Part shown: one piece after another, positions 39,064 through 60,927 of the stretch
Layout: every line of letters begins with the position of its first letter
How positions within the stretch are numbered: position 1 is the first letter of the stretch
Assembly (NCBI GenBank): GCA_019058365.1
Contig: JAHPZE010000001.1
Span: 1-64,000, forward strand
Length of the DNA: 64,000 nt
Reading direction: 5' to 3'
Source: Promethearchaeota archaeon
GTDB lineage: Archaea; Asgardarchaeota; Lokiarchaeia; Sigyniarchaeales; SOKP01
The notes under the pieces: generated by a model
The model's database searches: none
Told to the model about the DNA's origin: nothing
The model's input: the letters and a program-made list of their open reading frames with translations, nothing else
Position numbers and translations under genes: made by a program

Positions 39064-40206
39064 ATGGAATCCACGAAGAGTGAAGATTGTCTTATATTTT
39101 ATGGTTTCACTCCAGAAATTACTAAAATGCGTCAAGTTTTCAGTTCAATCGCAGATTTTATGAAAAATAAACAATTAACAGATCCCTCTGATAGATTTAA
39201 CCTTATTGTGTTTCAGCATGATGGACCAAATTATTTAGATCATTTCACTTTTGATCAAGAACTTATTCTTAAAACATTGAAATCTATGAGTGGGGATATT
39301 ACTAATGCAAATATCGCTGGTGGAATTTTTATTGCAATAACCTTCATAATTGAAGTATATAAGAAAATTTCTGAAAAGATATTTCGATTATTAATATTGA
39401 TAGATGAAGGAGCATATGATATCCCCTCTGATTATCTTCCTCCCATAGAGGAGTTAATTAAAGTTGTTAAAGATATGCCTTTCTTTATTGACGTTGTGCG
39501 TATTGGACTGCCAAACTCAGAAATAAGTACAAAATTAATGAAATTAACAAAATTGTGTAATGGTGAATTCTACGAGATTGCTACTATTCGAGAATTAGAT
39601 CCCATATTAACAACCTTATCAGAGAAGAAGTATGTCTCAGAACCATCATTTATTAAACAAAGAATACGAATGATTTTACCAGATAATCAACCTTTTTATA
39701 TAAATTTAGCTGATGCACCCGAAAGTATTGATGATACAGTGACATGCTCGATATGTTTTAAAACTGATAATAAGAATATAGTTATGTGTCCATCCTGTGA
39801 AAGTGTTGCCCATAAAGTATGTTGGGCTCAATGGGCTGAAACATCTAATATTGGGATACCTTATGTGTTTCGATGCCATAATTGTTTTAATATTTTAAAA
39901 CTTGAGAAAGAGTTTGTGCAGGATGTTAAATTGGGTAAAATTCCTACCATTGCAGAATTAAGTAAAGTTAAGAAAAAGAATATTATTGAATATATGCATG
40001 AATTAGAAGCTAAAAGAAAACCTAAGATAATTCATGCTGATGATCCAATAGCGGTTTCGATTAGAGCAAAATTATCAGCTGAAGAAGTAAAAACTCAACC
40101 AAAAAAAACTAAAAAGAGAGCGGATGTCAAAATTTGCCCCAATTGCAGTAAAATTATAAAGGGCTCGCGAAAAAGTTGCCCATCTTGCGGTTTTGTATTA
40201 TTTTAG
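39064..40206 (+). CDS. vWA-like + PHD/RING-like + zinc-ribbon protein, paralog 2
   Basis: Collinear with paralog 1 over the full length. Confidence 0.7.
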   Translation: MESTKSEDCLIFYGFTPEITKMRQVFSSIADFMKNKQLTDPSDRFNLIVFQHDGPNYLDHFTFDQELILKTLKSMSGDITNANIAGGIFIAITFIIEVYKKISEKIFRLLILIDEGAYDIPSDYLPPIEELIKVVKDMPFFIDVVRIGLPNSEISTKLMKLTKLCNGEFYEIATIRELDPILTTLSEKKYVSEPSFIKQRIRMILPDNQPFYINLADAPESIDDTVTCSICFKTDNKNIVMCPSCESVAHKVCWAQWAETSNIGIPYVFRCHNCFNILKLEKEFVQDVKLGKIPTIAELSKVKKKNIIEYMHELEAKRKPKIIHADDPIAVSIRAKLSAEEVKTQPKKTKKRADVKICPNCSKIIKGSRKSCPSCGFVLF

Positions 40207-40229
40207 AAATTGAAAGTTTAAGGATTCTT

Positions 40230-41099
40230 CTAGGAGTGTAACTTTTTCTCTATTATATCATATATATTTTTAATATTTTTTTTAAGATTAAAAACATCAA
40301 ATTTCACGCCGATTCTCGCTCTCAGAAGTGTTGGGATATGGTCTCTATTTATAAAGACAGGAATAATTGGTTTTTTAATTGCATGGGCAGCCATCCATTC
40401 ATCTTCGACAAATTCAGACCTTAATGCATTTGGAGAGCAAAATAAGATTATTACATCACATCTACTAATATTTCTATCCATATACTTGATAAAATTATCT
40501 TGTGTATCTTCTTCAAAATAGAGAATATCCTCTATTTTATCATATTTAGTCAATTCTTCGGCAATTTTTCTAATGTTGAAAAGTTGACTATCTGCCATTG
40601 CGTAACTAATAAATCCGATGAGGTTGTTTCTATCTTCTAATTTTCCTTTTTTTTTTAACACTCTTTCCTCATATATGGGCTTAGGTTTACCAATTGTAAT
40701 AAGAGATTTCAACTTTTCTTTTTCATACTTAGATAATAATATAATTATCCAAATATACACACAACATGAGATAAATCCCAGATAAAAACCAAATCCAAAA
40801 ATTGTCGGTTCTCTATTTAACACGGGGACTATGTCAACATAGAGAAGAAATATTAAAAATATAATATCAATAATTCCTATTATTATAGCTCCTCGGATTG
40901 CCCTAGTTATTATAATGTTTGAAATAATTATAAATATTAAAGCAATTAAACGCCAAGTAATATAATAAACAGTCAAATAAGGGTCATAATAAGGTTCACC
41001 ATTATATAAAATTAGATAAGGAAAGAATTGAGAAAGGAAAAAAACAAGAACAGAAGAAAGATAAATAATTCTGATTATTAATATTCACTGCTTTAGTAT
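40230..41099 (-). CDS. Membrane-anchored TIR-domain protein, 5' end possibly degraded
   Basis: GFISYA, CDVIILFCSPNALRSEFVEDEW, KPIIPVF; N-terminal TM helices; frame open to 41084, in-frame TGA 41085-41087, ATA 41099 after AGGTG. Confidence 0.8.
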
Positions 41100-41297
41100 A
41101 AACTACACCTTTAAATCAAAACTATGTATCTTTAAGCCTTCTGGGTATTTAAATCGTAAAGATATTTCTTGATTTATATATGCATTTACTTACATTTTCA
41201 AAATTTATGTACTGAACTTTTATAAACCAAATATTTAAATAATTTATAGCTAAATCAAATAATAACTTGAACTAGATCTTTTTTTAAACTGATCTTA

Positions 41298-41501
41298 ATA
41301 GAAGATAAAAACAAACCGAGAATTATTCAAGCTGAAGATCCAATGGTAGTTATGATTAGGGTAAAAATTGATGAAGAAAAAGTAAAATCCAAAAGCAGAC
41401 AAGATAAAAAAAATTAATACGTAAATATCTGCCCTAATTGTAGCAAAATTATAATAGGTGCGAAAAAGCAATGTCCTTCGTGTGGTTTTTTCTTGTTTTA
41501 A
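41298..41501 (+). pseudogene. 3' remnant of a third vWA-zinc-finger paralog
   Basis: IEDKNKPRIIQAEDP..KKN*YVNICPNCSKIIIGAKKQCPSCGFFLF*; matches C-termini of both paralogs; internal TAA 41415-41417; no 5' part. Confidence 0.88.
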
Positions 41502-41618
41502 TAAAGATAATGTAGAATTTTTGAAATAAAATAATATAAGCCATATATTTAAATAATTTAGGGCAAAACAATTAATAAGATAATTTGTAGATCTTTTTAA
41601 AATAGAATTAAATTAAAG

Positions 41619-43289
41619 TTGAAAACAATGGATTCAGATTTATTTACATTTATTGTTGGCGGTAAAGCTGGAGAAGGGGTAAAAAAAGCAGGCTCTGTTG
41701 CTGCTCATATATTTTCAAGCATGGGGCGACATGTATTTCAAATGGATGATTATATGAGTTTAATAAGGGGTGGACATAACTTTTCGGTTGTAAGTACAAC
41801 ACCAAGATGGATAAGTAGTCATTATATGAAAGCAAATCTTGTGGTAAATTTTGACAAAAGAAGCTGTGAAACACATACCAATGATATTGCAGAAAATGGG
41901 ATTATGGTTTATGATTCAGACGAACAAGAACTTGAGAATGGTATTGGTATCCCCTTAACAAATGAAGCAGAAAAATATCCAATGAAAAAATTGATGTTAG
42001 GTGTTGGTGCGGTAGCAATATTAGCAGCAACAATTGGATTTGAAGGAGAAGAAATGAATCAAATTATTAAAGAGGAATATCCAACAGGAATTGAAGAAAA
42101 TATCGCCTTTGCAGATACAATTTATAATATGGTATACCCTTATTGTGGAAAGAAATTTACCTTAGAGAATGGTGACAAAAAGAGACCAATTATCACAGGA
42201 AATGAAGCAATCAGCTTAGGAGCAATTGCTGGGGGTTTAAACGTTTACTATGGATATCCTATGACTCCTGCATCATCAATTTTACACTTTCTTGCTCAAC
42301 AAGCTGAAAATTTTGGCTTAGCTGTGGTTCATGCTGAAAGTGAAATAGCAGTTATTAATATGGCAATTGGTTCAGCTTTTACAGGAGCAAGAGCAATGGT
42401 TGGGACAAGCGGTGGAGGATTTGCACTTATGACAGAAGGATTTTCTTTAGCAGGTATCATAGAAGCCCCAATATTAGTTGTATTATCTCAAAGACCTGGA
42501 CCTGCTACAGGAGTTCCCACTTATACAGAACAAGCTGATTTAGCTTTTGCTTTATCTGCAGGTCATGGAGATTTCTTAAGAATAGTTGCCTCCCCTAGAA
42601 CCGTTAGAGAGGCATATTTTCTAACTGCCGAAATGTTAGATTTGGTATGGAAATTTCAGACTCCAGGGATATTACTTACTGAAAAACATCTCTCAGAAAG
42701 TAGTATGACAGTCGAAATTGATTTAGAAAAGGCGAAATGGGCTGAGCCTAAAATGCATGAAAATGGTGAGTATAAACGATATTTAGATACTGACAATGGA
42801 ATTTCACCTATGGTGTTTCCCCCGTCAAAAAAAGTAATTAAATGGAATAGTTATGAACATGATGAATTTGGGATAACAACAGAAAATGCTGAAAAGATAT
42901 CTTTCATGCATGATAAAAGAAATAAAAAGTTGGAAGCACTTATAAAATATTTAAAGGGACAAGATACTGTTAGAATAATTCGTGGGGAAAATCCTACTAA
43001 TATTTTCACATATGGTTCATCATACATGAGTGTTTTAGAGGCTCTCAAGTATGGAAGAATTAATCCTACCATTATTGCACCAATATATTTAAGTCCTTTA
43101 CCTATTTGGGAATTGGAAGAATTCAAAGATCAAGAGAATATAGTTATAGAACAGAGTTCTACAGGGCAGTTTACTAAGCTACTAAACGAAAAAGCAGGAT
43201 TAAAGGTAAGAAACACAATTAAACAGTATGATGGACGTCCATTTGATCCAGTTGAATTATCAAAAAAAATAAAGGAGGTGCTTCAATAA
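41619..43289 (+). CDS. korA: 2-oxoacid:ferredoxin oxidoreductase, fused gamma/alpha subunit
   Basis: GGKAGEG, IRGGHN, YPMTPAS, ESEIA, TSGGGF, QRPGPATG. Confidence 0.92.
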   Translation: MKTMDSDLFTFIVGGKAGEGVKKAGSVAAHIFSSMGRHVFQMDDYMSLIRGGHNFSVVSTTPRWISSHYMKANLVVNFDKRSCETHTNDIAENGIMVYDSDEQELENGIGIPLTNEAEKYPMKKLMLGVGAVAILAATIGFEGEEMNQIIKEEYPTGIEENIAFADTIYNMVYPYCGKKFTLENGDKKRPIITGNEAISLGAIAGGLNVYYGYPMTPASSILHFLAQQAENFGLAVVHAESEIAVINMAIGSAFTGARAMVGTSGGGFALMTEGFSLAGIIEAPILVVLSQRPGPATGVPTYTEQADLAFALSAGHGDFLRIVASPRTVREAYFLTAEMLDLVWKFQTPGILLTEKHLSESSMTVEIDLEKAKWAEPKMHENGEYKRYLDTDNGISPMVFPPSKKVIKWNSYEHDEFGITTENAEKISFMHDKRNKKLEALIKYLKGQDTVRIIRGENPTNIFTYGSSYMSVLEALKYGRINPTIIAPIYLSPLPIWELEEFKDQENIVIEQSSTGQFTKLLNEKAGLKVRNTIKQYDGRPFDPVELSKKIKEVLQ

Positions 43290-43290
43290 G

Positions 43291-44130
43291 ATGGAAGATC
43301 TTAAAACTTATGCTGAAATTACATGGTGTCCAGGATGTGGAAATTTTGGAATTTTTACTGCGATAAGAAATGCAATCCCTCTATTAGAGCAAAAAGATAT
43401 CAAAAGAGAGAGTATAGTTATGACTGCTGGAATAGGGTGTCATGCAAAAATTTTTGATTATCTTAATTTAAGTGGAATTTATGGATTGCATGGACGTAAT
43501 TGTTCAAATTCTGAAGGTATCAAAATAGCAAATCCCGATTTAAAAGTAATTAACTTTTCGGGAGACGCAAATGGATTAGCGGAAGGTTTGGCACATACTA
43601 TGTTCGCAGCAAAAAGGAACCAAGATATAATGTTTATTTTACATAATAATAGCGTGTATGCTCTTACAACAGGCCAATTCTCTCCTTCAGCAGAAAAAGG
43701 TTGGAAGGGCCCCTCTACTCCCAGAGGTAGCTACGAAGAACCATTTAACCCCATATCGTTGATGATTGAAGCAGGTGCTACTTTTGTTGCAAGAGGTTTT
43801 TCTGGAGATATTAAACATCTCACTGATCTTATAGTACAAGGAGTAGAACATGAAGGTTTCACTTTCATAGAAGTCTTGCAACCAGCTGTTCCCTACCATA
43901 CTTGGGCTGAATACAGAGAACAAATTGAATATCTCAAAAAAGAACCAGATACACAGTTCGAAGCTATTAAAGCTGCTAAAGAGAAACATAAGTTTACAAT
44001 AGGAGTATTTTATAGAACGACAAGACCACTTTATCATAAAGAGTTATATGGAGATCACAACCCTATTACTAAAAGGCTGTCGAGAGATGAAAGATTATAT
44101 AAAATTCGCAAAATACTTGAATCTAAATAA
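43291..44130 (+). CDS. korB: 2-oxoacid:ferredoxin oxidoreductase beta subunit
   Basis: WCPGCGN, GIGC, LHGR, GDA..NNSVYALTTGQ. Confidence 0.92.
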   Translation: MEDLKTYAEITWCPGCGNFGIFTAIRNAIPLLEQKDIKRESIVMTAGIGCHAKIFDYLNLSGIYGLHGRNCSNSEGIKIANPDLKVINFSGDANGLAEGLAHTMFAAKRNQDIMFILHNNSVYALTTGQFSPSAEKGWKGPSTPRGSYEEPFNPISLMIEAGATFVARGFSGDIKHLTDLIVQGVEHEGFTFIEVLQPAVPYHTWAEYREQIEYLKKEPDTQFEAIKAAKEKHKFTIGVFYRTTRPLYHKELYGDHNPITKRLSRDERLYKIRKILESK

Positions 44131-44162
44131 AGAAATTTATGGATTTTGAAAATATTGAGTAT

Positions 44163-44507
44163 TCAGTTTAATTTATCGTTATTTTTTTCAATTTCTTTAA
44201 GGATTTTTGAATAAAGAGCAGAGGATATCCTCAAAGTAGTATTTTCTACGAGATTATGAAGAAAATTTTTACACTTTTCTACATTAATAAATTTTAAGCG
44301 CGTTGCTTTGATAAGGGCACCTATAGGACCAGTGACTTTTAAGCCTAATGTCCTAGCAATCTCCCATGCTGCTAAATCATCAATATTAATAACACTTTCA
44401 CCAGTATTATCTTGAAATTTCTTTGCAAAGGCTAATACAGATGCTTCTCCAGCACTAATATGTAATTCAATGATATTAACAATAAAATTCGATATGCTTT
44501 CAATAAA
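44163..44507 (-). pseudogene. 5'-truncated PIN-domain (DUF3368-like) gene
   Basis: GEASVLA..IDDLAA..ARTLGLKVTGPIGAL; the ORF N-terminus is just the antisense of the MCP fragment. Confidence 0.7.
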
Positions 44508-44714
44508 GTGGAAGACATAAGCGCATCTGCAGAAGGACAAACTGCTTCTATGGAAAAGATTACCTCTACGGCGCATAAATTGAGGGTAAAAGCAGAGGAA
44601 TTAATGAGATTATTAAATGCAAAAGAAACCTCTGTTGTAAAAAAGAAAATGTTCAAATCTAAGAAAATAAAATTGAAAAAAAAAAGAGATATAAATGAAA
44701 ATGATGATAATTAA
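44508..44714 (+). pseudogene. 3' remnant of methyl-accepting chemotaxis protein
   Basis: EDISASAEGQTASMEKITSTAHKL matches the MCP C-terminal methylation helix (SAEEQTASMEEI). Confidence 0.75.
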
Positions 44715-44884
44715 TACTTTCTTAGAAGAGCTTCCCGAAAGTTTCAAATTACTTTTTTTTCCTTAATTTCCCCTTATATTTAGGAGTAAAAGGAAATTCT
44801 TGTAAATTTTCGTATCAGTTTTTAGGCGTTCTTAACTTTTTAAGCATATACTTCACTAATGTATTAAATTACCATTCGATAATT

Positions 44885-45817
44885 TTATTTATTGCCACTC
44901 TTATTTTTCTGCTCTTCTAAACAGAATTCACATTCCTCAACACCAGCTTTATCACAGACTTTACACATATGCTTGTATCCTATATCCTTACCTGCTCTCC
45001 TTTTTGGTGAAAAAATTATAGAAATTACAAAAATAACACTTATAGTTATGGTGATTGTAGAACCAGATGGTAAGTTAAGGATATAAGATAGATACAGCCC
45101 TACAAAGGATGAAACCGCTCCGAATAGTATTGAAAGTAATAAGATCCGATTTATCTTATAGCTCCATTGGTATGCAGCAGCAGCAGGAGTTGTAATCATT
45201 GCAAAGACCAAGATTGCCCCTATTGCCTTTAAGGAGACTACAATAGCTAATGAAATTAATATAAGAAATATGTAAGAAATAAACCTTACAGGTAACCCTG
45301 TTGCACTGGCCATTTCATCATCGAAAGTTATAAAAAATAGTTCCTTTTTCATGAAAAAAATGATCATAATGATTATGATACTAATAGAGATTAATAACAG
45401 TAAATCTTCAGTTGTGACTATCAAAACATTTCCAAATAGAATAGCAGTAACAGCAGCATTATATGTTTTAATCAAACTTATAAATAATACTGCTAGAGCC
45501 ATTGTTAGAGAAAAAATAATCCCTACAGCAACATTATTATCCTCTATATAACCCTTCTCATTTATGAAACCAATTGTCATTGCTGCCCCAGTACTAAAAA
45601 GGAAGATTGTAACAAACGGATTTATTCCCAAGAGTATTCCCAAAGCTCCTCCTGCAAATGAAGAATGTGCAATTCCTGCTCCCATAAAAACTAAACCTCG
45701 TAGTATTATAAAAACACCCACAAGACCGCAAATAATTCCTACTATTATTGATGTGATCAACGCACGTTGGAGGAATGTATACTTTAATAAAACTTCGAAA
45801 AAATTTTCAAATAACAT
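44885..45817 (-). CDS. Mn/Zn ABC transporter permease (ZnuB/MntB)
   Basis: FLQRAL, GIAHSSFAG, LFGNVL, FDDEMA..G, TPAAAA; Cys-rich tail. Confidence 0.92.
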   Translation of the reverse strand: MLFENFFEVLLKYTFLQRALITSIIVGIICGLVGVFIILRGLVFMGAGIAHSSFAGGALGILLGINPFVTIFLFSTGAAMTIGFINEKGYIEDNNVAVGIIFSLTMALAVLFISLIKTYNAAVTAILFGNVLIVTTEDLLLLISISIIIIMIIFFMKKELFFITFDDEMASATGLPVRFISYIFLILISLAIVVSLKAIGAILVFAMITTPAAAAYQWSYKINRILLLSILFGAVSSFVGLYLSYILNLPSGSTITITISVIFVISIIFSPKRRAGKDIGYKHMCKVCDKAGVEECEFCLEEQKNKSGNK

Positions 45818-45965
45818 GATAAATCTATACTTTTCTAATAATATTTTGAATAAAATTATGGAAAACTCCTTTAAATTTCTTTTTATAGATTTACTATCTA
45901 AAAGTTTAAATTAAATTATATACGAATGATCGTAGATACGAACCATCATAAAATTAAGAATAATT

Positions 45966-47027
45966 TTGATTATGAAAAATATGAAAAACATGAAAAGAAG
46001 TAAAAGAGTAGCATTTGTTATCTTTTTCATCTTTTTATTAGTAGTAAGTATTAGATTAAATACATATCAAATAAATAAGCAAGCTGCCCATCCATTAAAT
46101 TCTTTTAAAGAAGCAAATACTTCACTGAAAATTGTGGCAACAATTACGATAATAGAAGATGCAGTTGAACATATTATTGGACAAGATGTCCCTGTCATTG
46201 TTCCTGGATCAGCAGATCCCCATTCGTACGAGCCAACATCTAATGAAATTTTGGCTCTGGAAAATGCTGATATCATCTTTCGCATGGGACTTGAGGATCT
46301 TGAACCTTGGTGGCGAACTGAATGGGAGGACGCGTATGTTGTTAAATTAATTGATTCAAATATGCTTAGAGTAGACCCTTTACTTGGGTTTGTTAATCCC
46401 CATGTTTGGATGGATCCGAATAATATGAAAAATTTTGCACAAAATATTAATCAGACTCTATGGATTAAAGACCCCTTACTCTCAAATAAGTGGATTTTTT
46501 CAAATAACACTTTGAATTATTTAACTATCCTTGATAACTTATTAATTACAATTCAGAATGCCAAAATCACTTTTAATGGAATGAAAGTTGTTGTTAATCA
46601 TCCCGCTTATTTCTATTTGTTCCAAGAAAATCTTTTAAATTTAACCCGATTAGGAACCATTGAAAAAGGGGAAGATCAAGAACCTTCTGCTATCGAGATC
46701 ACAGATATTATAAAAATAATGAGGGAAGAAGGATGTCATCTTATTGTTACAGATCCCCAACATAGAACTGAGAATGTTTATGAAATAGCTAGAGAAACGC
46801 AATCCAAAATTGCCTTACTCACTCCCCTTTTGAATGTAGAAGTCAATTGGAATAAAGAACAGGTATTAATCTCAAATTATACCCAGATGATCGAGTATGA
46901 TATATGGGCATTAAGCAATCCAATCAATCCACCAAATTTAATAGATATAATAGGAATTATCGTTACTTTTGGGTTAATAATAATTGCACTCTTAATTTTA
47001 TTTTTTTACATAAGGAGGAGAAAATAA
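45966..47027 (+). CDS. Mn/Zn ABC substrate-binding protein (TroA/ZnuA) with C-terminal TM anchor
   Basis: DPHSYEP, NPHVWMDP, HPAYFY, EPSA. Confidence 0.9.
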   Translation: MIMKNMKNMKRSKRVAFVIFFIFLLVVSIRLNTYQINKQAAHPLNSFKEANTSLKIVATITIIEDAVEHIIGQDVPVIVPGSADPHSYEPTSNEILALENADIIFRMGLEDLEPWWRTEWEDAYVVKLIDSNMLRVDPLLGFVNPHVWMDPNNMKNFAQNINQTLWIKDPLLSNKWIFSNNTLNYLTILDNLLITIQNAKITFNGMKVVVNHPAYFYLFQENLLNLTRLGTIEKGEDQEPSAIEITDIIKIMREEGCHLIVTDPQHRTENVYEIARETQSKIALLTPLLNVEVNWNKEQVLISNYTQMIEYDIWALSNPINPPNLIDIIGIIVTFGLIIIALLILFFYIRRRK

Positions 47028-53717: not shown

Positions 53718-55071
53718 GATTAATCCTACCTATTGCTCTAAATGGTATAGCACCATTAAATTTATCATAATTATATAATCTTCTTCCATCTACTAAATTG
53801 GGTGTTTTCATCAATCGCCTAAAATCGTCTGGGGTTAGGGTTTTAAACTCATCCCATTCAGTAATCAATAGTGCACATTCAGAACCTTTTAAAGCGTCTT
53901 CTATAGAGTCAATGTATTTAACCTTATCCCCCATTTCCTCTTCTGCCGTCTTAAGAGCTTTAGGATCATATCCAATTATATCAGTCACTCCCCTTTTTCT
54001 TAATTCATTAACAACTCTGATACTTGCAGCTTCTCGCATGTCGTCTGTACCCGGTTTAAAAGCAAGACCTAGCAAAGTAACTTTTTTACCAGCTAATTTT
54101 CCAACTAATTCTTCTGCAATATCTACTATATGAATAGCTTGATCATCATTTATTTCTAAAACTGCCTTTAATAATCTTGAAGTATATCCTTTAGATTTCG
54201 ACCATACTTTTATTGCATTCACATCTTTATGAAAGCAAGAGCCTCCAAAGCCTGCACCTGCTCGTAAAAATCTCGGATTTATTCTATAATCAAACCCTAC
54301 ACCTTTCATAACTTGCAATACATCTACATTTGGTACTAATTCTGCAAAATTAGCGAATTCATTAGCATAGCTTATTTTTGTAGATAATAAGCAATTATTC
54401 CCATATTTAACTAATTCAGCACTTTCCAAATTCATTCGTAAAATAGGACATGTTTTTAAGTGATCTCCATAAAAATATTCATAAAATTCTTGGAGCATTG
54501 CACCGCTTTTTTCATCGAATTCACCAATAACAATCCTATCAGGATGTAGGGTATCTGAAACAGACGATCCTTCAGCCAAAAACTCGGGTTGCATACATAA
54601 TCCGAAATCTTTTCCCGGTATTTTTCCTGAAACTTCGGTTATTAGCTTTCCTACAAGATTTCTAGTAGTACCGGGAACTACAGTCGATCTCACAACCACT
54701 AGGTGGTAGGAATCTTTTTGTTTAAGAGCCTCACCAATTTCCCGAGCAGTACTCTCGATATAACCTAAATTAATGCTTCTATCTTCTCGCATTGGCGTGC
54801 CTTGAGTAATCATGGATATATCCGTTTCAAGAACAGATTTCACTGGATCAAGGAGACATTGTAATAACTCAGGCTTCGTGGCCTTTATATTGTCCATCAT
54901 TTCTTGTAAATTTGCTTCATAGAAGGGAGCTTTTCCCTCGTTAATCATATTAGCTTTTTTCTCGTTATGCGTAGATGCTAAAACTTTGATATCCTTATTA
55001 GCAAAACAAGCAGCACTGCATAATCCAATGAATCCCGTACCTAAAATGCTCACGGAATATTTATATACCAT
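53701..55071 (-). CDS. ugd: UDP-glucose/GDP-mannose dehydrogenase
   Basis: GTGFIG, RSTVVPGT, PEFLAEG, GFGGSCFHKD, GLAFKPGTDDMR; ATG 55071. Confidence 0.92.
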   Translation of the reverse strand: MVYKYSVSILGTGFIGLCSAACFANKDIKVLASTHNEKKANMINEGKAPFYEANLQEMMDNIKATKPELLQCLLDPVKSVLETDISMITQGTPMREDRSINLGYIESTAREIGEALKQKDSYHLVVVRSTVVPGTTRNLVGKLITEVSGKIPGKDFGLCMQPEFLAEGSSVSDTLHPDRIVIGEFDEKSGAMLQEFYEYFYGDHLKTCPILRMNLESAELVKYGNNCLLSTKISYANEFANFAELVPNVDVLQVMKGVGFDYRINPRFLRAGAGFGGSCFHKDVNAIKVWSKSKGYTSRLLKAVLEINDDQAIHIVDIAEELVGKLAGKKVTLLGLAFKPGTDDMREAASIRVVNELRKRGVTDIIGYDPKALKTAEEEMGDKVKYIDSIEDALKGSECALLITEWDEFKTLTPDDFRRLMKTPNLVDGRRLYNYDKFNGAIPFRAIGRINLKYIY

Positions 55072-55255
55072 TATTAAATTCACTTTTCGTTAATTCTAAT
55101 GATAATGCAAAATAAAGAATTCCAATTAAAACTTTTTTAAATAATTTCTCAAAATAAATTGATAAAACAGACTACAAAAAAAAGGTTTCAATATTTAATA
55201 AATTACAAAATTCAATATTCTTGATTTATTTTATTATAAAGAATTTTTAAAAAAA

Positions 55256-56896
55256 TTATCCTTCAAATTTTTTCCCATCAGTGTAATTTCTTGGATCTGA
55301 AGCATTATTTGGATCAAATTCGTATTTGATTGCTTTCATCCACGTGTGGTAATTACATGTAATCGGTCCAAATAGATCGCATTGATGTACGCTTCCTTCC
55401 ATATCCCCTATGCCCAAACCAATTCCGAGAGGATTTATCTTATTTGCCTCTATTACCGAATTAAGGTAATGAGTCGCAGCTTTACGAGAAGTTTCGTCTG
55501 TAATATCATACATAAATAACTCTTCTAAATGAGAAAACGTTCCCCCTTCATAAGGATTCCCCCAAACATTATCTGCTCCATCATCAACTAATCCCCCAAA
55601 ATCAATCGCTTTTTGTTTTAATCTCTCTCCGATTTTAGCGCCTTCAACGCACCAATCCCAGCTTCCCAGAGCGCCTAAAGATGTATGAAAACCTCCGCCT
55701 GCTCTAAATACTCCTCTCGTTGTATTGCATTGCCTTACTATTGCCATAAAAGCTAATGCTTTCATCGGCTTAAGCTGTGTAATGGGATTATATTCGCCAT
55801 TTGTTTTTTCGACTATATGATTCAACACTTTTTGCCGGTATTCGAATTCTTTTTCATTATCAGCCACAATAATTATCATCAATTCGTGGCCTCCTCTATG
55901 GGCTAAATCTTGAAAAATCTTTTCCGTATACATTGTAGTATTATTGGGAGCAGCAGCCAAGGCTAGATCGAAACCTTGTATTCTACAGAGACCCCAACAT
56001 ATTTCTGAATAGGCTAATAAGTATCCTGCATCCTTGAAATCTTCCCAATCGTCCCAAATAATGTGAAAAGCCTCGCAATTATCTGGCATCTTATTTTTAA
56101 CTAAACTGTAATTTGGAGAGCGACCTTGAATTTTCAGTACCTTTGGTCCTGGCCAATCGTAAAGTTTTATGGCCGCCTTTGTAAAAATACCCATACCTCC
56201 AAATGCTCCAAAATAACCTCTATATACTCCGCGTATGCTTGGTCCTGGACCGTCAGCAAAAAACCATTCAGAAGCGTCAATTTCTTTATTATGATCCTCA
56301 GCGCCCTCAAACGAACCCCAAGAACCTATCCTGCACACAATGCCTTCGGGCATGACCCATTCTGCTCCGACAATATTTCTATTAGAAAATCCTGTTGAAA
56401 TTCCGGTCCAACCTTGCCCACACATACTTGTGACCGTAACTAATTGGGATCCATTCGCACCACATCCAGCAATGTGACAGTTTAAACCTAATTTAAAAAG
56501 TTCCGTTTGAAGCTGACCGCTAATTACGTAAGGTTCAACCACTGCAATCATATTTTTTGTATCTACATCTAAAATTTTATTCATTCTTCGACAGTCTAAT
56601 ATTATCACCTTGTTCTCCTGTCCGGCACAATTATGAGCTCCCCAACCAGTACTTTGTGCTTTAAATTGCAACCCATTTTCGTTGCAGTATTTTACAATTT
56701 TCACGATTTCGTCTGTAGTAGAAGGTAAAACAACGCATATCGGACGATTCGTAAATTTAGATTTTCCCTCAGTCGCAAGATCTGCAAGATATTGATATGC
56801 ATAGTTGTCTAATAAGTAGTCATCAGAATTAGCAAATTTATTACCTACAATACTTTGCATTGCGATTAAAACTTCATTTCTATCTATTCTACTCAT
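55256..56896 (-). CDS. FAD-binding oxidoreductase (VAO/PCMH, GlcD-like)
   Basis: VVLPSTTDEI, LDCRRMNKI, VEPYV, GPGP, MGIFTK, FDPN. Confidence 0.85.
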   Translation of the reverse strand: MSRIDRNEVLIAMQSIVGNKFANSDDYLLDNYAYQYLADLATEGKSKFTNRPICVVLPSTTDEIVKIVKYCNENGLQFKAQSTGWGAHNCAGQENKVIILDCRRMNKILDVDTKNMIAVVEPYVISGQLQTELFKLGLNCHIAGCGANGSQLVTVTSMCGQGWTGISTGFSNRNIVGAEWVMPEGIVCRIGSWGSFEGAEDHNKEIDASEWFFADGPGPSIRGVYRGYFGAFGGMGIFTKAAIKLYDWPGPKVLKIQGRSPNYSLVKNKMPDNCEAFHIIWDDWEDFKDAGYLLAYSEICWGLCRIQGFDLALAAAPNNTTMYTEKIFQDLAHRGGHELMIIIVADNEKEFEYRQKVLNHIVEKTNGEYNPITQLKPMKALAFMAIVRQCNTTRGVFRAGGGFHTSLGALGSWDWCVEGAKIGERLKQKAIDFGGLVDDGADNVWGNPYEGGTFSHLEELFMYDITDETSRKAATHYLNSVIEANKINPLGIGLGIGDMEGSVHQCDLFGPITCNYHTWMKAIKYEFDPNNASDPRNYTDGKKFEG

Positions 56897-58236
56897 TTTT
56901 TCATCAACTCCAATACTAATTGATTGATATCTCTATATTGAAGATCTTTCCCCATGTCTGAGATTGCATCTTCAAAATTAGTTTTACAAAATGGACAGGC
57001 ACTAACTATAAATTTCTCAGTATCTCTTTCTTTTGAAGCTTTTTTTAGAACAAATTCCGCCTCTTCAAGACGATTTTTTGCCGTAAGTATTGCCATTTCT
57101 GGATATGCCGCTTTCACACCGCCTCCTGAGCCGCAACAGTAAGTATACTCATTAATTCGAAACATTTCAACGAACTCTATTGCTTTTTTCATTCTTTTAA
57201 ATATCTCTCTTGGAACATCATAAACACCTTTAGCTCCTCGTCTATAAATTTTCGGCGGATCATATATAGTAATTTGATTGTACACTTTCTTTTTAGTTCC
57301 CTTCCATTCAGAAACATATGGTTCGGCACCTCTTCCTAAATGACATGGATCATGATAGGTTATTATCGGTTTTTTCTCCGTTTCATCAAATAGGATCTTC
57401 TTTTTCCGAATAGCTTCTTCAATTATTTCAACCATATGACGGAATTTGATTTTTTTCCACAACTTAATGTGGTCTTCATCTAATTGATGGGGATATTCTG
57501 CTACAAACATGGCATAACATCCAGGACACGCAGTTATTACTTCTTCGACTCCTAATCTATTGAACAACTCGATATTAGATTGCATGTATTTTTTAGAAGT
57601 TTCTACTTGACCAGATCTATAAATTGGAGAACCGCAGCAAATTTCGTCTTTAGAGACCTGGAACTCATAATCAATAGCATTTAGTATTTCCACACTAGCT
57701 TGGGCCATATCTTGCTGCCGATATGAAGCGGTACATCCCGTAAAAAATAATGTTTTTGAATTTGGATTTGATTTGGCGCCCGTCTTGCCGATCCAATCTT
57801 GTCGATTCTCATGGGGTTCGCCGTAAGGATTATTGTATTTCTCAGCAGCATCTGCGTATTTTCTATGAGAAGGATGAGGACCAATCCTCTCAACTATATA
57901 TCTTCTTACATCGAAAATGGTATCAAGAACTTCTAGGTCCGTAGAGTATTTGCAGGATGTATCACATGCCCCACATAGAGTGCATTGTAATACAGCATCC
58001 CTCATAGCCTCCGTAACTGCTATTCTATCATAATAAAGAGATGCTCCTACTACAATTTTTCCACCGCCAGACCAAGGGTGAAAATAGCCATAATCCATAG
58101 AGCAGCATACCGAGGAAAATTCGGCGGATTTTATTTGAGCCAATGGAGGCCATTTGCATAAACTACAGCGAGCACACCTCCAATATTCATCAGTATGTTT
58201 ATCTAGTAATTTTTTACTTTCTTCCATTTTTATCAC
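56893..58236 (-). CDS. Fe-S oxidoreductase with CCG domains (GlcF/HdrD-like)
   Basis: CARCSLC, CTLCGAC, CCGSP, CPGC, YHDPCHLGR, CCGSGGG, ACPFC. Confidence 0.9.
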   Translation of the reverse strand: MIKMEESKKLLDKHTDEYWRCARCSLCKWPPLAQIKSAEFSSVCCSMDYGYFHPWSGGGKIVVGASLYYDRIAVTEAMRDAVLQCTLCGACDTSCKYSTDLEVLDTIFDVRRYIVERIGPHPSHRKYADAAEKYNNPYGEPHENRQDWIGKTGAKSNPNSKTLFFTGCTASYRQQDMAQASVEILNAIDYEFQVSKDEICCGSPIYRSGQVETSKKYMQSNIELFNRLGVEEVITACPGCYAMFVAEYPHQLDEDHIKLWKKIKFRHMVEIIEEAIRKKKILFDETEKKPIITYHDPCHLGRGAEPYVSEWKGTKKKVYNQITIYDPPKIYRRGAKGVYDVPREIFKRMKKAIEFVEMFRINEYTYCCGSGGGVKAAYPEMAILTAKNRLEEAEFVLKKASKERDTEKFIVSACPFCKTNFEDAISDMGKDLQYRDINQLVLELMKK

Positions 58237-58243
58237 CTTTAGA

Positions 58244-59710
58244 TTAAAAAATTAATTGCCCTTTATTGAGAATCATGTCAGGATCAAAAATTCTTTTCAA
58301 TTTTCTCAGCCCCTCTTGAAAAACTTGATTTTTATCTGTAAAAGCTAAGTCATTTATAAGTTCATATGAACGGGAGAAAAATCCCCCATGTAAATCCGCA
58401 AATTGACCTATTTCCTTAGCTATTGCTCTAACTTTTTCAAGTGAATATTCAATTTTATTAGAATCAGGTCTATCTGATATAATTGAAAATTCTAAATTTA
58501 CAGCTCTTGCTTGAATCAAGGGTTGCATATAGATATTCACCCGGTCCATTGGAAAACTACGCTTGTTAAGAATGTTTTCGACTGCATTAAGATGAGTTTG
58601 CACTCGATCTAGGGTTGTATTATAAAATATATCTATTGCTATGGATGTTTCGGAAAACTTAGGATGTGGATCAATTGTATTGCCATCAAGAAGAGGTTCG
58701 ATCTCATTTTGGGTTATCCCTGAGATATTATCACTTGCTTCAAAGCCAAGTTCACTAAGAATTTCGTTGCAACATTCCATCTGGTAAGAGATTTTATCAT
58801 CAGGGAATAATTCATAGCCGTTTATAGCAAATATCAAAATGTATTTCTTAATATTTCCATTTATAGATGGAAAAATAGCTTTCATTAAGTTATCATTAAT
58901 GATAAAAATTTCATCAATCCATCGTTTTCTTACTGCGGAGTATATAAATTCGGTGAGTGGTTTAATTGAATCTGAATTGATAAATCTGATTTTTCTTTTA
59001 GCAGGGATAAAATCACATTGCATAGAAATCCACGATACAATACCATAAGTACCTTTAGAAGCTTGTATTATTCTAAAAATATCTGTTTGACCAGGGCCTA
59101 GGGGACTAGTTAGAGCAGCCCCAAATTTTCTATTTGTTTCGATATCCAATGGACCTGCCGCTTCTCCCGTTCTGAATATTTCTCCATTACCAAATACAAC
59201 CTCCATACATAACAATGGATCTGAAATATCCCATTGCTTTTTAGCAATTAAATGAGGTTCTCGATCTAAAACGGAAGCGAGAACTGATTTTCCTGGTCTC
59301 GGGAGAAAAGGTGCTAATGGCCTAAGACCATGCTCTTTAAGTTTGGGAATTAGTTCCGCCCATGTTACCCCTGGCTCTATAACACAAACTCTATTTCTTT
59401 TATTAATAAAAGGAACTTGTTTCATATCATGTAAATCTAAAATTATAGTTTTATCATGACAGACTGTGTCGTTTAGGAATTTAGGGGAAGTCGTGCTGCT
59501 TATAATCACTACATTAATATTAATTAAAGTTCTGAAATATTGAATTAGTTTTGATATCTGGTCAGAATTCTCTGGTAAAATACTTATAATTGGAGTATCA
59601 CTTGTTTTTTCTAATATTGGTTTACAATAAAGTTCTCTAAGTAAATCTGAATCAGTAATTACTTTTTCTTTATTGATAATTTCATATAGTTTTTCAAAAT
59701 TAATTGACAT
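58244..59710 (-). CDS. FAD-binding oxidoreductase (VAO/PCMH fold)
   Basis: LDLHDM, IEPGVT, MEVVFGNGEIFRTG, GPG, GTYGIV, FDPDMILNKG. Confidence 0.85.
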   Translation of the reverse strand: MSINFEKLYEIINKEKVITDSDLLRELYCKPILEKTSDTPIISILPENSDQISKLIQYFRTLININVVIISSTTSPKFLNDTVCHDKTIILDLHDMKQVPFINKRNRVCVIEPGVTWAELIPKLKEHGLRPLAPFLPRPGKSVLASVLDREPHLIAKKQWDISDPLLCMEVVFGNGEIFRTGEAAGPLDIETNRKFGAALTSPLGPGQTDIFRIIQASKGTYGIVSWISMQCDFIPAKRKIRFINSDSIKPLTEFIYSAVRKRWIDEIFIINDNLMKAIFPSINGNIKKYILIFAINGYELFPDDKISYQMECCNEILSELGFEASDNISGITQNEIEPLLDGNTIDPHPKFSETSIAIDIFYNTTLDRVQTHLNAVENILNKRSFPMDRVNIYMQPLIQARAVNLEFSIISDRPDSNKIEYSLEKVRAIAKEIGQFADLHGGFFSRSYELINDLAFTDKNQVFQEGLRKLKRIFDPDMILNKGQLIF

Positions 59711-59768
59711 TTTAACTCATTCTCTTAATTTTCCAATAAGTATTAATTTAATTTATATGATTCATTTA

Positions 59769-59797
59769 TATATGCATCGTCGCATATAAATATGCAT
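59769..59797. promoter_or_regulatory. Candidate operator between divergent oxidoreductase operon and regulator
   Basis: Inverted repeat TATATGC-N6-GCATATA (59769..59788); TATGCAT repeated at 20-bp spacing. Confidence 0.4.
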
Positions 59798-59818
59798 TAA
59801 AGTATATTTATCATAATT

Positions 59819-60706
59819 TTGTATTTAAAGATATTGGTTACAAAATTGAGCTCTAACGATTATAATGAAAGAATTATGGATTGCCTTAACCAAAATAATT
59901 TTGGAATGACAATAACACAAATTTCAGAAGAGATAAATGGTAATAGAAATACAGTTTCTAAATACCTCAATAGACTAGAATCAAAAGATATTGTGTATAA
60001 AAAGGAGATAGGAAAAGCTTGTTTATATTTCATTAAAGACATTGAGTCAAAAGTATTAAATTTTATAAATGAAAACCCATCAGGGGTTACGATAAAAGAC
60101 ATCTCATATGAATTAAAGCTAACAAGAGACTCGGTGAAAAAACATCTTATAACTCTTGAAAAACAAGATAAAATCTTTAGCACAAAATTAGGAGCATATA
60201 CACTGTTTAAAAGTTCAGAAGCGAAATTTGTGCCAAAAAAATTTATGGTTTCATTCTATAAGGCTCTCCTTAAAGATTTAAAGATAAAATTTCCGAATAA
60301 AGAAAGAATATTTAAAGAAATTGGACGTAATATGTTTGGTGATATAAAATTTCCAATAAGTAAACTAATAATAAAAAAATTGGAGGATTTTAAGACATCT
60401 CCTCTCAAACAATTACATTTTGAAGTATTCAAAGATGTATTTCCCTCTTATTATATTTTTGAACCAATCCAAATTTCAGATCCAAAAATTGACAGCTCAG
60501 GTAAGAAAGGTATTTTTAGATTGAAAAATTCAGAATTTTTAAATAATTCTGATTCTCTCTATCACTTTTATTTAATATCAGGAATGATTGAAACAAAGAT
60601 GTCAAATGATCTAGGGGTACCAATTAAATGCAATATCGAAAAAATTCACATATCAGACAAAATAGAAGATTCTTATTCAGATATTTCAATAGAGTTTAAA
60701 AATTAA
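59819..60706 (+). CDS. Transcription regulator, two tandem wHTH domains plus V4R-like C-terminus
   Basis: GMTITQIS..RNTVSKYL and GVTIKDIS..RDSVKKHL; HFYLISGMIE. Confidence 0.8.
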   Translation: MYLKILVTKLSSNDYNERIMDCLNQNNFGMTITQISEEINGNRNTVSKYLNRLESKDIVYKKEIGKACLYFIKDIESKVLNFINENPSGVTIKDISYELKLTRDSVKKHLITLEKQDKIFSTKLGAYTLFKSSEAKFVPKKFMVSFYKALLKDLKIKFPNKERIFKEIGRNMFGDIKFPISKLIIKKLEDFKTSPLKQLHFEVFKDVFPSYYIFEPIQISDPKIDSSGKKGIFRLKNSEFLNNSDSLYHFYLISGMIETKMSNDLGVPIKCNIEKIHISDKIEDSYSDISIEFKN

Positions 60707-60744
60707 TTTCTTATTTAGATTTTGACGAGTTATAATCTAAAAAT

Positions 60745-60927
60745 AATCTTATTCATAATTTCTTATAAGTTTTCTTCATAAAAAGGAGCTATTCCCTCAT
60801 TAATTATGGCTGCTTTTTTCGTATTGTGCGTCGATGCTAAGACTTTTATATCTTTTTGGGCAAAAAAAGCTGCAGAACAGAGGCCAATAAAGCCCGTCCC
60901 GAGGATTGATACACTATATTTATACAT
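60745..60927 (-). pseudogene. ugd: Diverged 5' remnant of ugd
   Basis: MYKYSVSILGTGFIGLCSAAFFAQKDIKVLASTHN..APFYEENL*; 46/53 aa identical to the N-terminus of 53701..55071. Confidence 0.92.

Follow-up and report, generated by a model that had tools for sequence, protein, structure and literature searches.

Displaced gene ends flank integrase-free cargo blocks in a Promethearchaeota genome, probably as scars of recombination between species

Three cargo blocks between a gene and its own fragment

We examined a window of 64,000 nt from a Promethearchaeota archaeon (GCA_019058365.1, contig JAHPZE010000001.1, positions 1–64,000; genome G000) and compared it with relatives labelled Promethearchaeota (Asgard) MAGs, which carry G numbers here and include the closed genome G006. 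The window contains three blocks of accessory genes (cargo), each lying between an intact gene and a fragment of one end of the same gene:

37766–38932, plus strand: vwaA, RING/Zn-ribbon protein, a full-length tandem paralogue of vwaB (61% identity)
39064–40206, plus strand: vwaB, intact; the allele type of its last ~200 nt is unlike that of the fragment
40230–40976, minus strand: cargo 1, TIR-domain protein of 248 aa (PF13676, E 1.8e-14)
41202–41262, plus strand: second, diverged copy of the korA promoter region, just upstream of the vWA fragment
41298–41501, plus strand: vWA/RING 3′ fragment, residues 314–380 of vwaB, with one TAA
41619–44130, plus strand: korA–korB, intact backbone genes (korB 43291–44130; Pfam POR, POR_N, TPP_enzyme_C)
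44163–48231: cargo 2, 5′-truncated PIN-like gene, znuB, znuA, znuC and DtxR-type repressor (Pfam)
48408–49058, plus strand: ferredoxin-like pseudogene (217 aa) with two frameshifts and two stops, from tblastn segments
49068–49229, plus strand: korB 3′ fragment, residue ~226 to the stop codon, with one internal stop
49515–53462, plus strand: CheB–CheR–PAS–histidine kinase (CheBR) fusion gene, 1315 aa (Pfam, synteny)
53701–55083, minus strand: ugd, UDP-glucose/GDP-mannose dehydrogenase family, intact but chimeric
55256–60706: cargo 3, two FAD-binding subunits and a CCG-domain subunit (minus strand) and a double-wHTH regulator (plus strand) (Pfam)
60745–60933, minus strand: ugd 5′ fragment, ugd residues 4–66, with one TAA, adjoining orf426
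61090–62370, plus strand: orf426, the ancestral divergent neighbour of ugd, with no Pfam family

The fragments were located by tblastn of the intact proteins against the window, and each lies on the same strand as its intact copy with one in-frame stop, confirming the architecture that an initial annotation had described for all three. The vWA fragment (41298–41498, plus strand) matches vwaB residues 314–380 with 57% identity (E 1e-18), the korB fragment (49068–49196, plus strand) matches korB residues 227–269 with 60% identity (E 1.5e-12) and the ugd fragment (60933–60745, minus strand) matches ugd residues 4–66 with 79% identity (E 6e-25). At korB the nucleotide repeat reaches the stop codon (43969–44136 versus 49068–49235, 168 nt, 70% identity). 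The label 'vWA' is only a label, because Pfam names just RING and Zn-ribbon motifs in these proteins. korA and korB encode the alpha/gamma and beta subunits of a 2-oxoacid:ferredoxin oxidoreductase, and the FAD and CCG genes of cargo 3 form a glycolate-oxidase-like operon.

The cargo blocks measure 1,091 bp (vWA locus), 4,937 bp (korB) and 5,661 bp (ugd). At the vWA locus the initial annotation listed vwaB, the TIR gene and the remnant correctly but missed vwaA; at korB its estimate of about 5 kb holds, but two decayed genes had escaped it. One is the PIN-like gene, which covers only residues 68–175 of its 175-aa homologue in G001. The other is the ferredoxin-like pseudogene, recovered as three tblastn segments in frames 3, 1 and 3; intact ferredoxin-like open reading frames of 217–222 aa are present in G015, G014, G011, G001 and G006, and the pseudogene is older cargo. 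The sequence at 41202–41262 resembles the region upstream of korA in G008, an alignment judged by eye with no identity computed. As the annotation had stated, no integrase or transposase was found among the cargo ORFs of all three blocks (Pfam scan); searches of the window returned no tRNA and no Rfam match. A site-specific integrative element was rejected, because the cargo has no integrase and no identical att core: the best repeats, those at korB (168 nt), have 70% identity, and no exact core common to both copies was reported.

Insertion polarity and allelic origin of the fragments

Synteny with cargo-free relatives had been suggested as a check, and one such relative, G002, carries a contiguous vwa–korA–korB–ugd–orf426 backbone. 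Because this backbone is uninterrupted, all three cargo blocks are insertions. At the empty sites of G002, the vwa 3′ end, korB 3′ end and ugd 5′ end are all single-copy, and both repeats align there. The vwa–korA adjacency is found in at least six further genomes, orf426 adjoins ugd in five relatives (G002, G005, G011, G012 and G014), and the fragments in the window adjoin the ancestral neighbours korA, cheBR and orf426. Compared with G002, the CheBR fusion gene, which lies between korB and ugd in G000 and G005 only, is itself an insertion of older date. The cargo of the korB–ugd interval varies across almost all species examined (it includes esterase, beta-lactamase-like, alpha/beta-hydrolase, ADH, MFS, Znu and CheBR genes), with no mobility genes, and no integrase or recombinase was found in the relatives' cargo at these sites.

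A genome-wide tblastn check, also proposed initially, revealed 47 same-strand terminal fragments lying 0.15–15 kb from their gene, 40 of which are ordered as 5′ fragment–cargo–gene or gene–cargo–3′ fragment (binomial p ~ 1e-6). Displacement affects 5′ and 3′ ends equally often and involves dozens of different genes. Median amino acid identity is 70%, and the lowest pS among the 40 is 0.12. Half of these fragments (20 of 40) have no stop, and some of them may be real small genes. One scar, on contig C48 (17455–17688 and 21969–22262), has fragments on both sides of the cargo and therefore requires two illegitimate joints or two successive events. About ten decayed copies of a 106-aa gene are arrayed on contig C24, a tandem family expansion in this genome. 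Twenty cargo proteins taken from 17 other scars included no recombinase or endonuclease. Genome-wide, there are two Phage_integrase matches (tyrosine recombinases), on contigs C7 and C46 and none on the contig of the window, and no match to the TnpB/Cas12f-type domain PF07282, the only transposase-type domain searched genome-wide.

The fragments differ from their intact copies in the manner of alleles. pS is 0.63 for vWA (dN 0.29, dS 1.37, dN/dS 0.21), 0.48 for korB (dN 0.24, dS 0.76, dN/dS 0.32) and 0.75 for ugd (dN 0.18, dN/dS below ~0.1), bearing out the initial reading of the ugd remnant as an old allele strongly diverged at synonymous sites. Differences at codon positions 1, 2 and 3 number 39, 32 and 83 for the three fragments pooled (54% at the third position) and 448, 326 and 773 for the 40 fragments genome-wide; these 40 carry 26 stops versus 92 ± 9 expected under wholly neutral decay, a coding signature inflated to some extent because tblastn detection favours coding-looking fragments. 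The repeats flanking the vWA and ugd cargo are 68–73% identical, and the vWA and ugd fragments are each closer to the intact gene of another species than to their own neighbour. Because synonymous sites are saturated and the changes follow a coding pattern, the repeats began as different alleles; by origin the fragments are allelic, not duplicative, and represent diverged alleles rather than fresh duplicates.

These data bear on two simpler accounts. If tandem paralogues had decayed, or a segment had been duplicated, the fragments would be the remains of once-complete second copies. vwaA and vwaB do form a full tandem pair in G000, also present in G005, G035, G060 and others, and tandem family expansion exists in the genome, as on contig C24. 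However, no relative examined carries two full korB or ugd genes at these sites, so that an objection raised at the outset was not upheld; each fragment occupies the position of the single ancestral gene, and the vWA fragment is allelic to vwaB. Segmental duplication would have repeated the cargo too, which is not repeated, and random truncation predicts a consistent geometry in 50% of cases, compared with 40 of 47 here. This account is largely refuted and very unlikely. The genome is also a MAG of 54 contigs with 6.6% estimated contamination, in which strain variants joined serially could produce false partial duplications. Such an artefact is scarcely credible: the junction between the wHTH gene and the ugd fragment recurs, together with the fragment, in three independent assemblies (G035, G056 and G059), which answers the concern that the junctions might be unsupported; the PIN–znu–dtxR cargo recurs in G005 and the TIR–korA arrangement in G008 and G035; the copies differ by 24–32% (nt), far beyond strain variation, and the fragments carry stops; and a 400-kb sample of the closed genome G006 contains two scars of matching geometry.

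Chimeric genes and the history of the cargo

The ugd locus provides the most detailed record. In 19 genomes of the genus, sequence aligns unbroken from the ugd 5′ end into the upstream spacer, and the homology of these relatives stops at, or within a few bases of, position 60744. The fragment and its spacer are 80–87% identical to the ugd 5′ regions of cargo-free relatives (for G005, 80% over the fragment and 87% over the spacer), and the fragment is the resident-type allele at its ancestral position beside orf426. The intact ugd has a different affinity at its 5′ end. Its upstream spacer is 92% identical to the FAD1–ugd spacer of the cargo-bearing G015, and its nt 0–520 are an outlier, with 69–76% identity to all relatives except for 98% to G035 over nt 198–520, after which, near nt 520, identity along the G000–G035 profile falls from 98% to 85%. 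In a tree of nt 198–520, a long branch is common only to G000 and G035. Over nt 550–1050, G000 groups with G005 and G014 (87%; tree). Trees of remnant and intact copies had been proposed as a check; in the tree of the 5′ 198 nt, the intact ugd ends of G000, G015 and G050 cluster with support of 0.98, accounting for three of the four cargo-linked ugd genes sampled, and the G035 5′ end falls outside. The intact ugd is thus a mosaic, in which the first ~520 nt are foreign and travel with the cargo and the rest is resident-like. Given that the junction is common to G035, G056 and G059, the founding event is old or has spread, and the chimeric boundary may postdate it, having arisen from a later double-crossover exchange. 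Cargo 3 is about 92% identical (nt) to that of G035 overall, and 93–99% identical over wHTH and FAD2.

At the vWA locus, the fragment shares 88.6% nt identity with the intact vwaB 3′ end in G060, against 67.5% with that in G000, and it is the displaced end of vwaB rather than a third paralogue. Along the G000 vwaB, identity to G060 is 96% at the start of the gene but only 67% at its 3′ end, a part that stays 82–89% identical to G005. The switch of allele type begins near nt 900–950, and the duplicated segment starts at nt 939. The korA promoter region is present as a direct repeat (41202–41254 versus 41516–41568, 77% identity). Divergent TIR alleles (53–55% aa identity) adjoin korA at the equivalent place in G008 and G035, and a diverged promoter copy before the vWA fragment is expected if the donor, like these two genomes, had TIR beside korA. 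Homology to relatives ends near 41298 here and at 49068 at korB; no donor sequence without the junction was found for the vWA, korB or ugd locus.

The korB fragment is 66–71% identical to every korB 3′ end sampled, with no close allele found; it is old, and architecture is what carries the korB case. Identity profiles of korA–korB against nine relatives did not resolve a chimera in the G000 korB. A parallel event is seen in G005, where identity to G000 is 88–98% over the first 1.3 kb of korA and 71–79% in korB, with a step at the korA/korB border, followed by an extra alpha/beta-hydrolase gene; after the cargo, a 22-nt korB end and its downstream sequence remain. G014 carries three serial korB 3′ fragments. 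Breakpoints in korB differ between genomes (residues ~163, ~223, 226/227 and 233), the one at 226/227 being common to G000 and G001, and the PIN-like gene adjoins korB in G000, G005, G001 and two further genomes (loci L046 and L052).

The cargo is more similar between species than its surroundings. Identity is 96% with G005 for cargo 2, whose flanks are 87–91% identical, and 93–99% with G035 over wHTH and FAD2 of cargo 3, whereas pS of the flanking core genes is 0.41–0.58. The cargo was therefore recently exchanged between species and has a history unlike that of its flanks. Together with the ugd mosaic and the affinity of the vWA fragment to G060, this agrees with the earlier proposal that DNA from related lineages replaced the resident allele and brought neighbouring genes with it.

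Two other routes to this architecture need to be weighed. In Campbell-type integration, or insertion with long target duplication, a circular cargo molecule with a short copy of a gene end would enter by a single crossover, and the repeats might later excise the cargo as a circle. This gives an identical geometry, for which restriction–modification genes with 30–400-bp target duplications and no mobility genes offer an analogue (PMC2853133). It predicts the two-sided scar on C48 if the homologous segment spans two divergent gene starts, and a circular molecule entering by one crossover would equally well explain why vwaB switches allele type close to where the duplicated segment starts. By contrast, the foreign tract of ugd extends to ~nt 520, past the duplicated 198 nt, which a crossover inside the repeat cannot yield; the repeats, only 68–76% identical, are too diverged for efficient crossover within 130–200 bp; none of the 40 scars has a pS below 0.12, so that no fresh near-identical duplication is seen; and korB also adjoins the PIN-like gene at L046 and L052, an observation limited to this gene pair. 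We consider this route improbable.

Alternatively, a homing-type endonuclease or an integrase acting in trans might cut the gene, with repair copying in an element that bears a resistant end. With every round of homing, WHO elements swap the FBA1 3′ end, and 3′ fragments accumulate in their wake (PMC7282813), and the serial korB fragments of G014, the shared breakpoint at 226/227 and the five occurrences of the PIN-like gene beside korB would fit such a process. However, the three cargo blocks contain no recognisable endonuclease or recombinase, the PIN-like gene is 5′-truncated, korB breakpoints vary, the 20 cargo proteins of other scars include no such enzyme and the only two tyrosine recombinases of the genome are on other contigs. 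Enzyme-driven replacement of gene ends is accordingly quite unlikely.

Gene-end displacement and its known counterparts

Taken together, these data lead us to favour, with a probability of roughly 0.6, the reading that the blocks are scars of recombination with DNA from other species of the same genus, that is, homology-anchored gene-end displacement. The process would be homology-facilitated illegitimate recombination (HFIR), with gene-end displacement as its product. A foreign segment would bring both accessory genes and its own form of the adjacent core gene's end; a homologous crossover would form on one side, inside or beyond the core gene, and a non-homologous joint on the other, falling within the resident gene. 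The working gene would become a hybrid of resident body and foreign end with the accessory genes beside it, and the resident end, severed and shifted to the far side of the cargo, would decay. Once formed, a scarred block would have homology on both sides and could pass between species by ordinary double crossover, and repeated events at one gene would pile up cargo and fragments. This reading is supported by the polarity of insertion as judged against cargo-free relatives, the allelic nature of the fragments, the chimeric structure of ugd, recent cargo sharing, the lack of recombinase genes and the genome-wide geometric bias; what we infer is the illegitimate joint, which way DNA moved in each event and how it entered the cell. 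Of the features expected of HFIR, chimeric anchor genes (ugd and vwaB), foreign inserted DNA and cargo without an element-encoded recombinase are present. More tentatively, Promethearchaeial (Loki-type Asgard) archaea might gain much of their accessory content through routine inter-species exchange with one illegitimate end and no mobile-element enzymes. If so, the dozens of gene-end scars per genome would constitute a countable and datable record of exchange.

HFIR has been shown experimentally, as a rare process, in naturally transformable bacteria (de Vries & Wackernagel 2002; Prudhomme et al. 2002; Meier & Wackernagel 2003, as cited in PMC5361080). Its non-homologous joints typically lie at 3–10 bp of microhomology. 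The one-sided homologous anchor with a non-homologous joint, the absence of an integrase and the trapping of foreign genes beside the anchor fit the chimeric ugd and the recombinase-free cargo. Here, however, HFIR is read from scars in an uncultured Asgard archaeon without a known DNA-uptake system, and the joints lie within the resident gene frequently enough to have left ~40 duplicated gene ends. C-terminal displacement at Rhs, CDI and T6SS effector loci, for which HFIR has been proposed as the mechanism (Kirchberger et al. 2017, PMC5361080; see also Jackson et al. 2009, cited therein), yields the same order of an intact gene with a new 3′ end, cargo and the displaced old 3′ end, and serial arrays comparable to the korB fragments of G014. 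Those loci encode polymorphic toxins and immunity genes under conflict-driven selection, whereas here the targets are ordinary metabolic genes (korB and ugd), 5′ ends are displaced too, and cargo and target gene are unrelated.

Insertion with long target duplication likewise involves few genes, no integrase, direct repeats of 30–400 bp and an empty genome that has only one copy (Furuta et al. 2010, PMC2853133; Nobusato et al. 2000, cited therein), and both flanking repeats here match one copy in the empty genome G002. The published repeats differ very little (44/46 and 417/423 are examples), and no archaeal case was retained in that survey (PMC2853133); the present ones are 68–76% identical, with saturated synonymous sites. 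As a candidate it fits only in part: the single empty-site copy agrees, but pS is 0.48–0.75 here and the changes are of coding type. WHO homing elements at FBA1 of Torulaspora and Lachancea yeasts encode the endonuclease that drives them and have a single target gene (Coughlan et al. 2020, PMC7282813). They share with our scars the replaced 3′ end of a housekeeping gene, the old end stranded downstream and the clusters of fragments, but here dozens of genes are hit, and the three cargo blocks have no nuclease. A WHO-like element fits poorly, the genes beside the replaced ends being TIR, the truncated PIN-like gene and an FAD-binding subunit, with no endonuclease.

The minimal mobile elements of Neisseria are integrase-free hotspots of gene turnover between conserved core genes, where exchange by double homologous crossover leaves no scar. 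The korB–ugd interval resembles them in its varying cargo and lack of mobility genes, but differs in that it retains truncated copies of the flanking genes, as a record of one-sided events.

Three gene-end fragments and the ancestral gene order

The G000 genome comprises 4.74 Mb in 54 contigs (~30% G+C), the window being contig C16:1-64000, and the relatives compared with it are labelled Promethearchaeota MAGs, that is, Asgard. The initial annotation had claimed three gene-end fragments here, and a tblastn search of the window with the intact proteins recovered all of them, each in an arrangement that we call a scar: an intact gene, a cargo block and a dead, diverged fragment of the same gene's end.

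Features of the scar region (genes from the ORF listing and Pfam; fragments from tblastn against the window)
37766-38932: vwaA, RING/Zn-ribbon protein
39064-40206: vwaB, RING/Zn-ribbon protein
40230-40976 (-): TIR gene
41298-41498: vwaB fragment, residues 314-380, 57% identity, E 1e-18
41619-44130: korA and korB
44163-48231: PIN-like gene, znuB, znuA, znuC and DtxR-type repressor
49068-49196: korB fragment, residues 227-269, 60% identity, E 1.5e-12
49515-53462: CheB-CheR-PAS-kinase fusion gene
53701-55083 (-): ugd
55256-59710 (-): FAD/CCG oxidoreductase operon
59819-60706: double-wHTH regulator
60933-60745: ugd fragment, residues 4-66, 79% identity, E 6e-25
After the double-wHTH regulator: orf426, then the DHDPS-Fae fusion gene

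As claimed, all three fragments share the strand of their intact copy and carry a stop (one in frame apiece, with zero frameshifts); compared as nucleotides, the korB fragment reaches the stop codon. The proteins involved all come from known families, and the ORF listing and Pfam bear out the absence of integrases and transposases among the cargo ORFs. Scans of the region for tRNAs and Rfam families gave zero matches, indicating that it holds no tRNA or RNA target, and a search for att-like exact cores flanking the cargo in G000 and its sister genome G005 found none. The three-scar observation is thus well supported. Separately, the 1315-aa protein encoded at 49515-53462 combines CheB methylesterase, CheR methyltransferase, PAS domains and a histidine kinase, and is present at that locus only in G000 and G005.

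The fragments were described as old, diverged alleles rather than fresh duplications, and this reading holds: synonymous divergence is high and changes concentrate at codon position 3 (39, 32 and 83 differences at positions 1, 2 and 3 across the three fragments). Nei-Gojobori dN/dS values against the intact copy are 0.29/1.37 for vWA and 0.24/0.76 for korB; the ugd values are dN 0.18 and, at saturated synonymous sites, a proportion differing (pS) of 0.75. At the flanking core genes, pS against the nearest species sampled is 0.41-0.58, so that donors within the genus would account for the fragment divergence.

Synteny, from a DNA-level search covering 30 relatives, with tblastn used to map the loci obtained, identifies the cargo as inserted. 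In the relative G002, a single vwa, korA, korB, ugd, orf426 and DHDPS-Fae are contiguous, with spacers of 70-200 bp, indicating that all three G000 blocks are extra. At least six further genomes have vwa adjoining korA, ugd and orf426 were directly seen as neighbours in five relatives, and the ugd 5' end aligns continuously into its upstream spacer in 19 genus genomes. Each fragment lies beyond the cargo, against its ancestral neighbour: korA and its promoter, the cheBR upstream region or orf426.

Junctions and allele histories at ugd, vwaB and korB

A recombination event with one homologous and one illegitimate junction would displace a gene end in this way. The data fit such a displacement, for which we consider the mechanistic support moderately good.

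The clearest of the three cases is ugd. The spacer upstream of its fragment resembles the ugd-orf426 spacer of relatives (G005 87%, G014 85%, G011 80%) and is only 59% identical to the spacer preceding the intact G000 ugd; the alignment starts at window position 60744 or a few bases away in the 19 genus genomes. The coding part is 78-80% identical to ugd of the same three relatives, which is their mutual similarity, and 71% identical to its own intact neighbour. Intact ugd has in front of it a spacer that matches the FAD1-ugd spacer of G015 at 92%. Four cargo-linked ugd genes were sampled for a tree of nt 1-198: the intact 5' ends of three (G000, G015 and G050) group together (support 0.98) and stand apart from fragments and cargo-free ugd genes, and that of the fourth (G035) falls beside the G000 fragment instead.

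Further into the intact gene, nt 198-520 form an outlier, 70-76% identical to all relatives but 98% to G035 (branch length 0.37, support 1.0), and nt 550-1050 are nearest to G005 and G014 (87%). Between G000 and G035, identity is mostly 89-99% over the cargo (83-92% in FAD1); within ugd it is 98% at nt ~130-520, drops to 85% and later to 70%. On these profiles and trees, ugd nt 1 to ~520 and the cargo have one history in common and the remainder of the gene has another; ugd alone carries at least three. The homologous junction is accordingly placed, from the alignments, inside ugd, ~320 nt past the duplicated segment. A circle integrating by a single crossover (a Campbell-type event) would cross over inside the repeat, which would not give a junction ~320 nt beyond it. 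Aligning window 53701-60320 with the G035 locus L031 also reveals many abrupt identity steps over 7 kb (99, 89, 83, 95, 68, 98, 85 and 70%), implying many short interspecies recombination tracts.

The junction between the wHTH gene and the ugd fragment is common to G000, G035, G056 and G059, which argues against an assembly artefact. The fragment copies carry different lesions (G035 frameshifts, G056 a single stop, G059 no lesion), indicating that the founding event is old or has spread between species. Among 54 genus genomes, none was found to carry the wHTH-FAD operon without the ugd junction, as a donor would.

At vwaB, the fragment matches the intact 3' end of G060 at 88.6%, that of G005 at 72% and that of G000 itself at 67.5%. 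This closest match identifies it as a displaced vwaB end and rules out a third paralogue. Along G000 vwaB, identity to G060 drops from 96% (5' end) to 67% (3' end). A scar fragment might in principle derive from incoming DNA, as its truncated end; here, the adjoining spacer, promoter and korA start are 99% identical to G005 and only 86% to G060, which favours the fragment being resident. A second copy of the korA promoter, diverged from the first, sits directly in front of the fragment (41202-41262), as expected if displacement involved incoming DNA in which TIR abutted korA, an arrangement found in G008 and G035. A TIR gene lies between vwaB and korA in all three genomes (window 40230-40976; L008:4399-5178; L050:4143-4925), yet the G000 protein is only 53-55% identical to its counterparts, which suggests that a defence-type gene has been replaced repeatedly at this site.

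At korB, placing the fragment among alleles was uninformative, since its identity to each of the sampled korB ends is 66-71%; only the architecture informs. The sister genome G005 records a parallel event. Its identity to G000 is 88-98% over the first 1.3 kb of korA and 71-79% in korB; an additional alpha/beta-hydrolase gene follows korB, and after the shared PIN-znu-dtxR cargo (96% identical, flanks 87-91%) lies a relic of the last 22 nt of korB and ~45 nt of downstream sequence.

The interval between korB and ugd is hypervariable across the genus, holding esterase, beta-lactamase-like, alpha/beta-hydrolase, ADH, MFS, DUF4386 and ferredoxin-like genes, with no mobility genes among those identified there in relatives. 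It also contains korB 3' fragments in G001, G011, G015 and G014. A common korB breakpoint was not accepted as a sign of site specificity, because breakpoints differ between genomes (residues 226/227 in G000 and G001, ~223 in G011, 233 in G015 and G014-C, 163 in G014-A/B). On G014 contig C153, three fragments stand in series (L015:19271-19579, L016:365-712 and L016:2230-2370), beginning at residues ~163, ~164 and ~233, with MFS, beta-lactamase-like and esterase genes interleaved, an array resembling those that displaced Rhs or WHO fragments form. G014 and G015 have the esterase-korB-fragment junction in common. In another species group (L014, L030, L062-L065), vwa lies between korB and ugd rather than upstream of korA, and the vwa-kor-ugd neighbourhood as a whole is rearranged within the genus.

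A 690-bp stretch (48380-49071; ~80% conserved in many genomes) was a candidate for a small mobile element or non-coding RNA but proved to be a pseudogene (48408-49058, two frameshifts, two stops) of a 217-aa ferredoxin-like (Fer4) gene that is intact, with ~80% DNA conservation, in many genus genomes and one sister-family genome (G030). The PIN-like (DUF3368) ORF at 44163-44576 (-) covers only residues 68-175 of its 175-aa G001 homologue; the truncated form also occurs in G005, and at loci L046 and L052, from two further genomes, korB likewise has a PIN-like gene next to it. The truncated PIN-like and frameshifted ferredoxin-like genes fit successive events pushing older cargo outward.

Scars across the G000 genome

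Genome-wide, ORFs of at least 90 aa were called and masked, and all proteins were searched against intergenic DNA. This yielded 219 fragments, 81 with a homologous gene within 15 kb, including 47 same-strand terminal fragments 0.15-15 kb from that gene. Of the 47, 40 are arranged as [5' fragment]-cargo-[gene] or [gene]-cargo-[3' fragment] (against an even split, binomial p 1e-6). Median length is 43 aa and median amino acid identity 70%, with medians of 0.22 for dN/dS and 2 kb for the cargo; pS does not fall below 0.12. These 40 fragments contain 26 stops, against 92 +/- 9 expected from neutral decay of an intact-sequence copy, a deficit due in part to tblastn ascertainment.

Among 20 cargo proteins from 17 other scars, all of ordinary accessory type, we found Ras-like GTPase, GNAT, AMP-binding enzyme, aminotransferase, ABC transporter, PIN, MNT-HEPN and proteins with no Pfam match, and no recombinase or homing nuclease. 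The whole 4.74 Mb has only two Phage_integrase matches (C7:157048-157563 and C46:204041-204526), both off the window contig, and no match to the TnpB/Cas12f-type domain PF07282; on these searches, classical mobility enzymes are few for so much gene turnover.

Three scars in 22 kb exceed the ~0.2 expected from ~47 in 4.74 Mb (Poisson P ~0.0015 for one window), but this is unremarkable across ~215 such windows, and hotspot status is limited to the variable korB-ugd interval. In 400-kb samples of two closed genomes, two terminal fragments each were found (consistent geometry: G006 2/2, G026 1/2), too few for a density comparison. For a scar on contig C17, the aminotransferase cargo is not at the locus in G005 and G038, and a multicopy small-gene family made the comparison unusable.

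On contig C48, a 4.7-kb cargo has scars on both sides (17455-17688 (+) and 21969-22262 (-)); the flanking genes are divergent (22456-23394 and 16098-17240) and the 5' fragment of each adjoins the other gene. Such a scar requires a second illegitimate joint, two events in succession or circle integration. A different kind of gene graveyard, ~ten decayed, stop-riddled copies of a 106-aa gene behind one intact copy (contig C24, 49254-57194), was left out of the scar statistics.

Significance and known systems

Accessory genes abound in the large genomes of Asgard archaea, yet G000, for the enzyme families searched, is nearly without integrases or transposases; recombinase-free gene gain would help to account for the growth of such genomes. 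Each scar keeps two alleles of a gene end, the earlier and the later one, so that scars can serve to date events, trace donor lineages and estimate recombination tract lengths for organisms that can hardly be cultured. Automated annotation, counts of pseudogenes and phylogenies of single genes will also be misled by the fragments and chimeric genes. Two papers about mobile elements of Asgard archaea (PMC8813620, PMC11529989) mention neither homologous recombination nor gene-end fragments. The claim is tempered by the class of mechanism being already well known in bacteria.

Insertion with long target duplication (PMC2853133) has the same architecture as the G000 scars but predicts near-identical repeats, which the scars do not show. 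WHO homing elements (PMC7282813) have serial 3'-end replacement in common with the scars but need a nuclease, and none is present in the window cargo. Gene-end displacement of the kind seen here is the product expected of homology-facilitated illegitimate recombination, as proposed for T6SS and Rhs arrays (PMC5361080).
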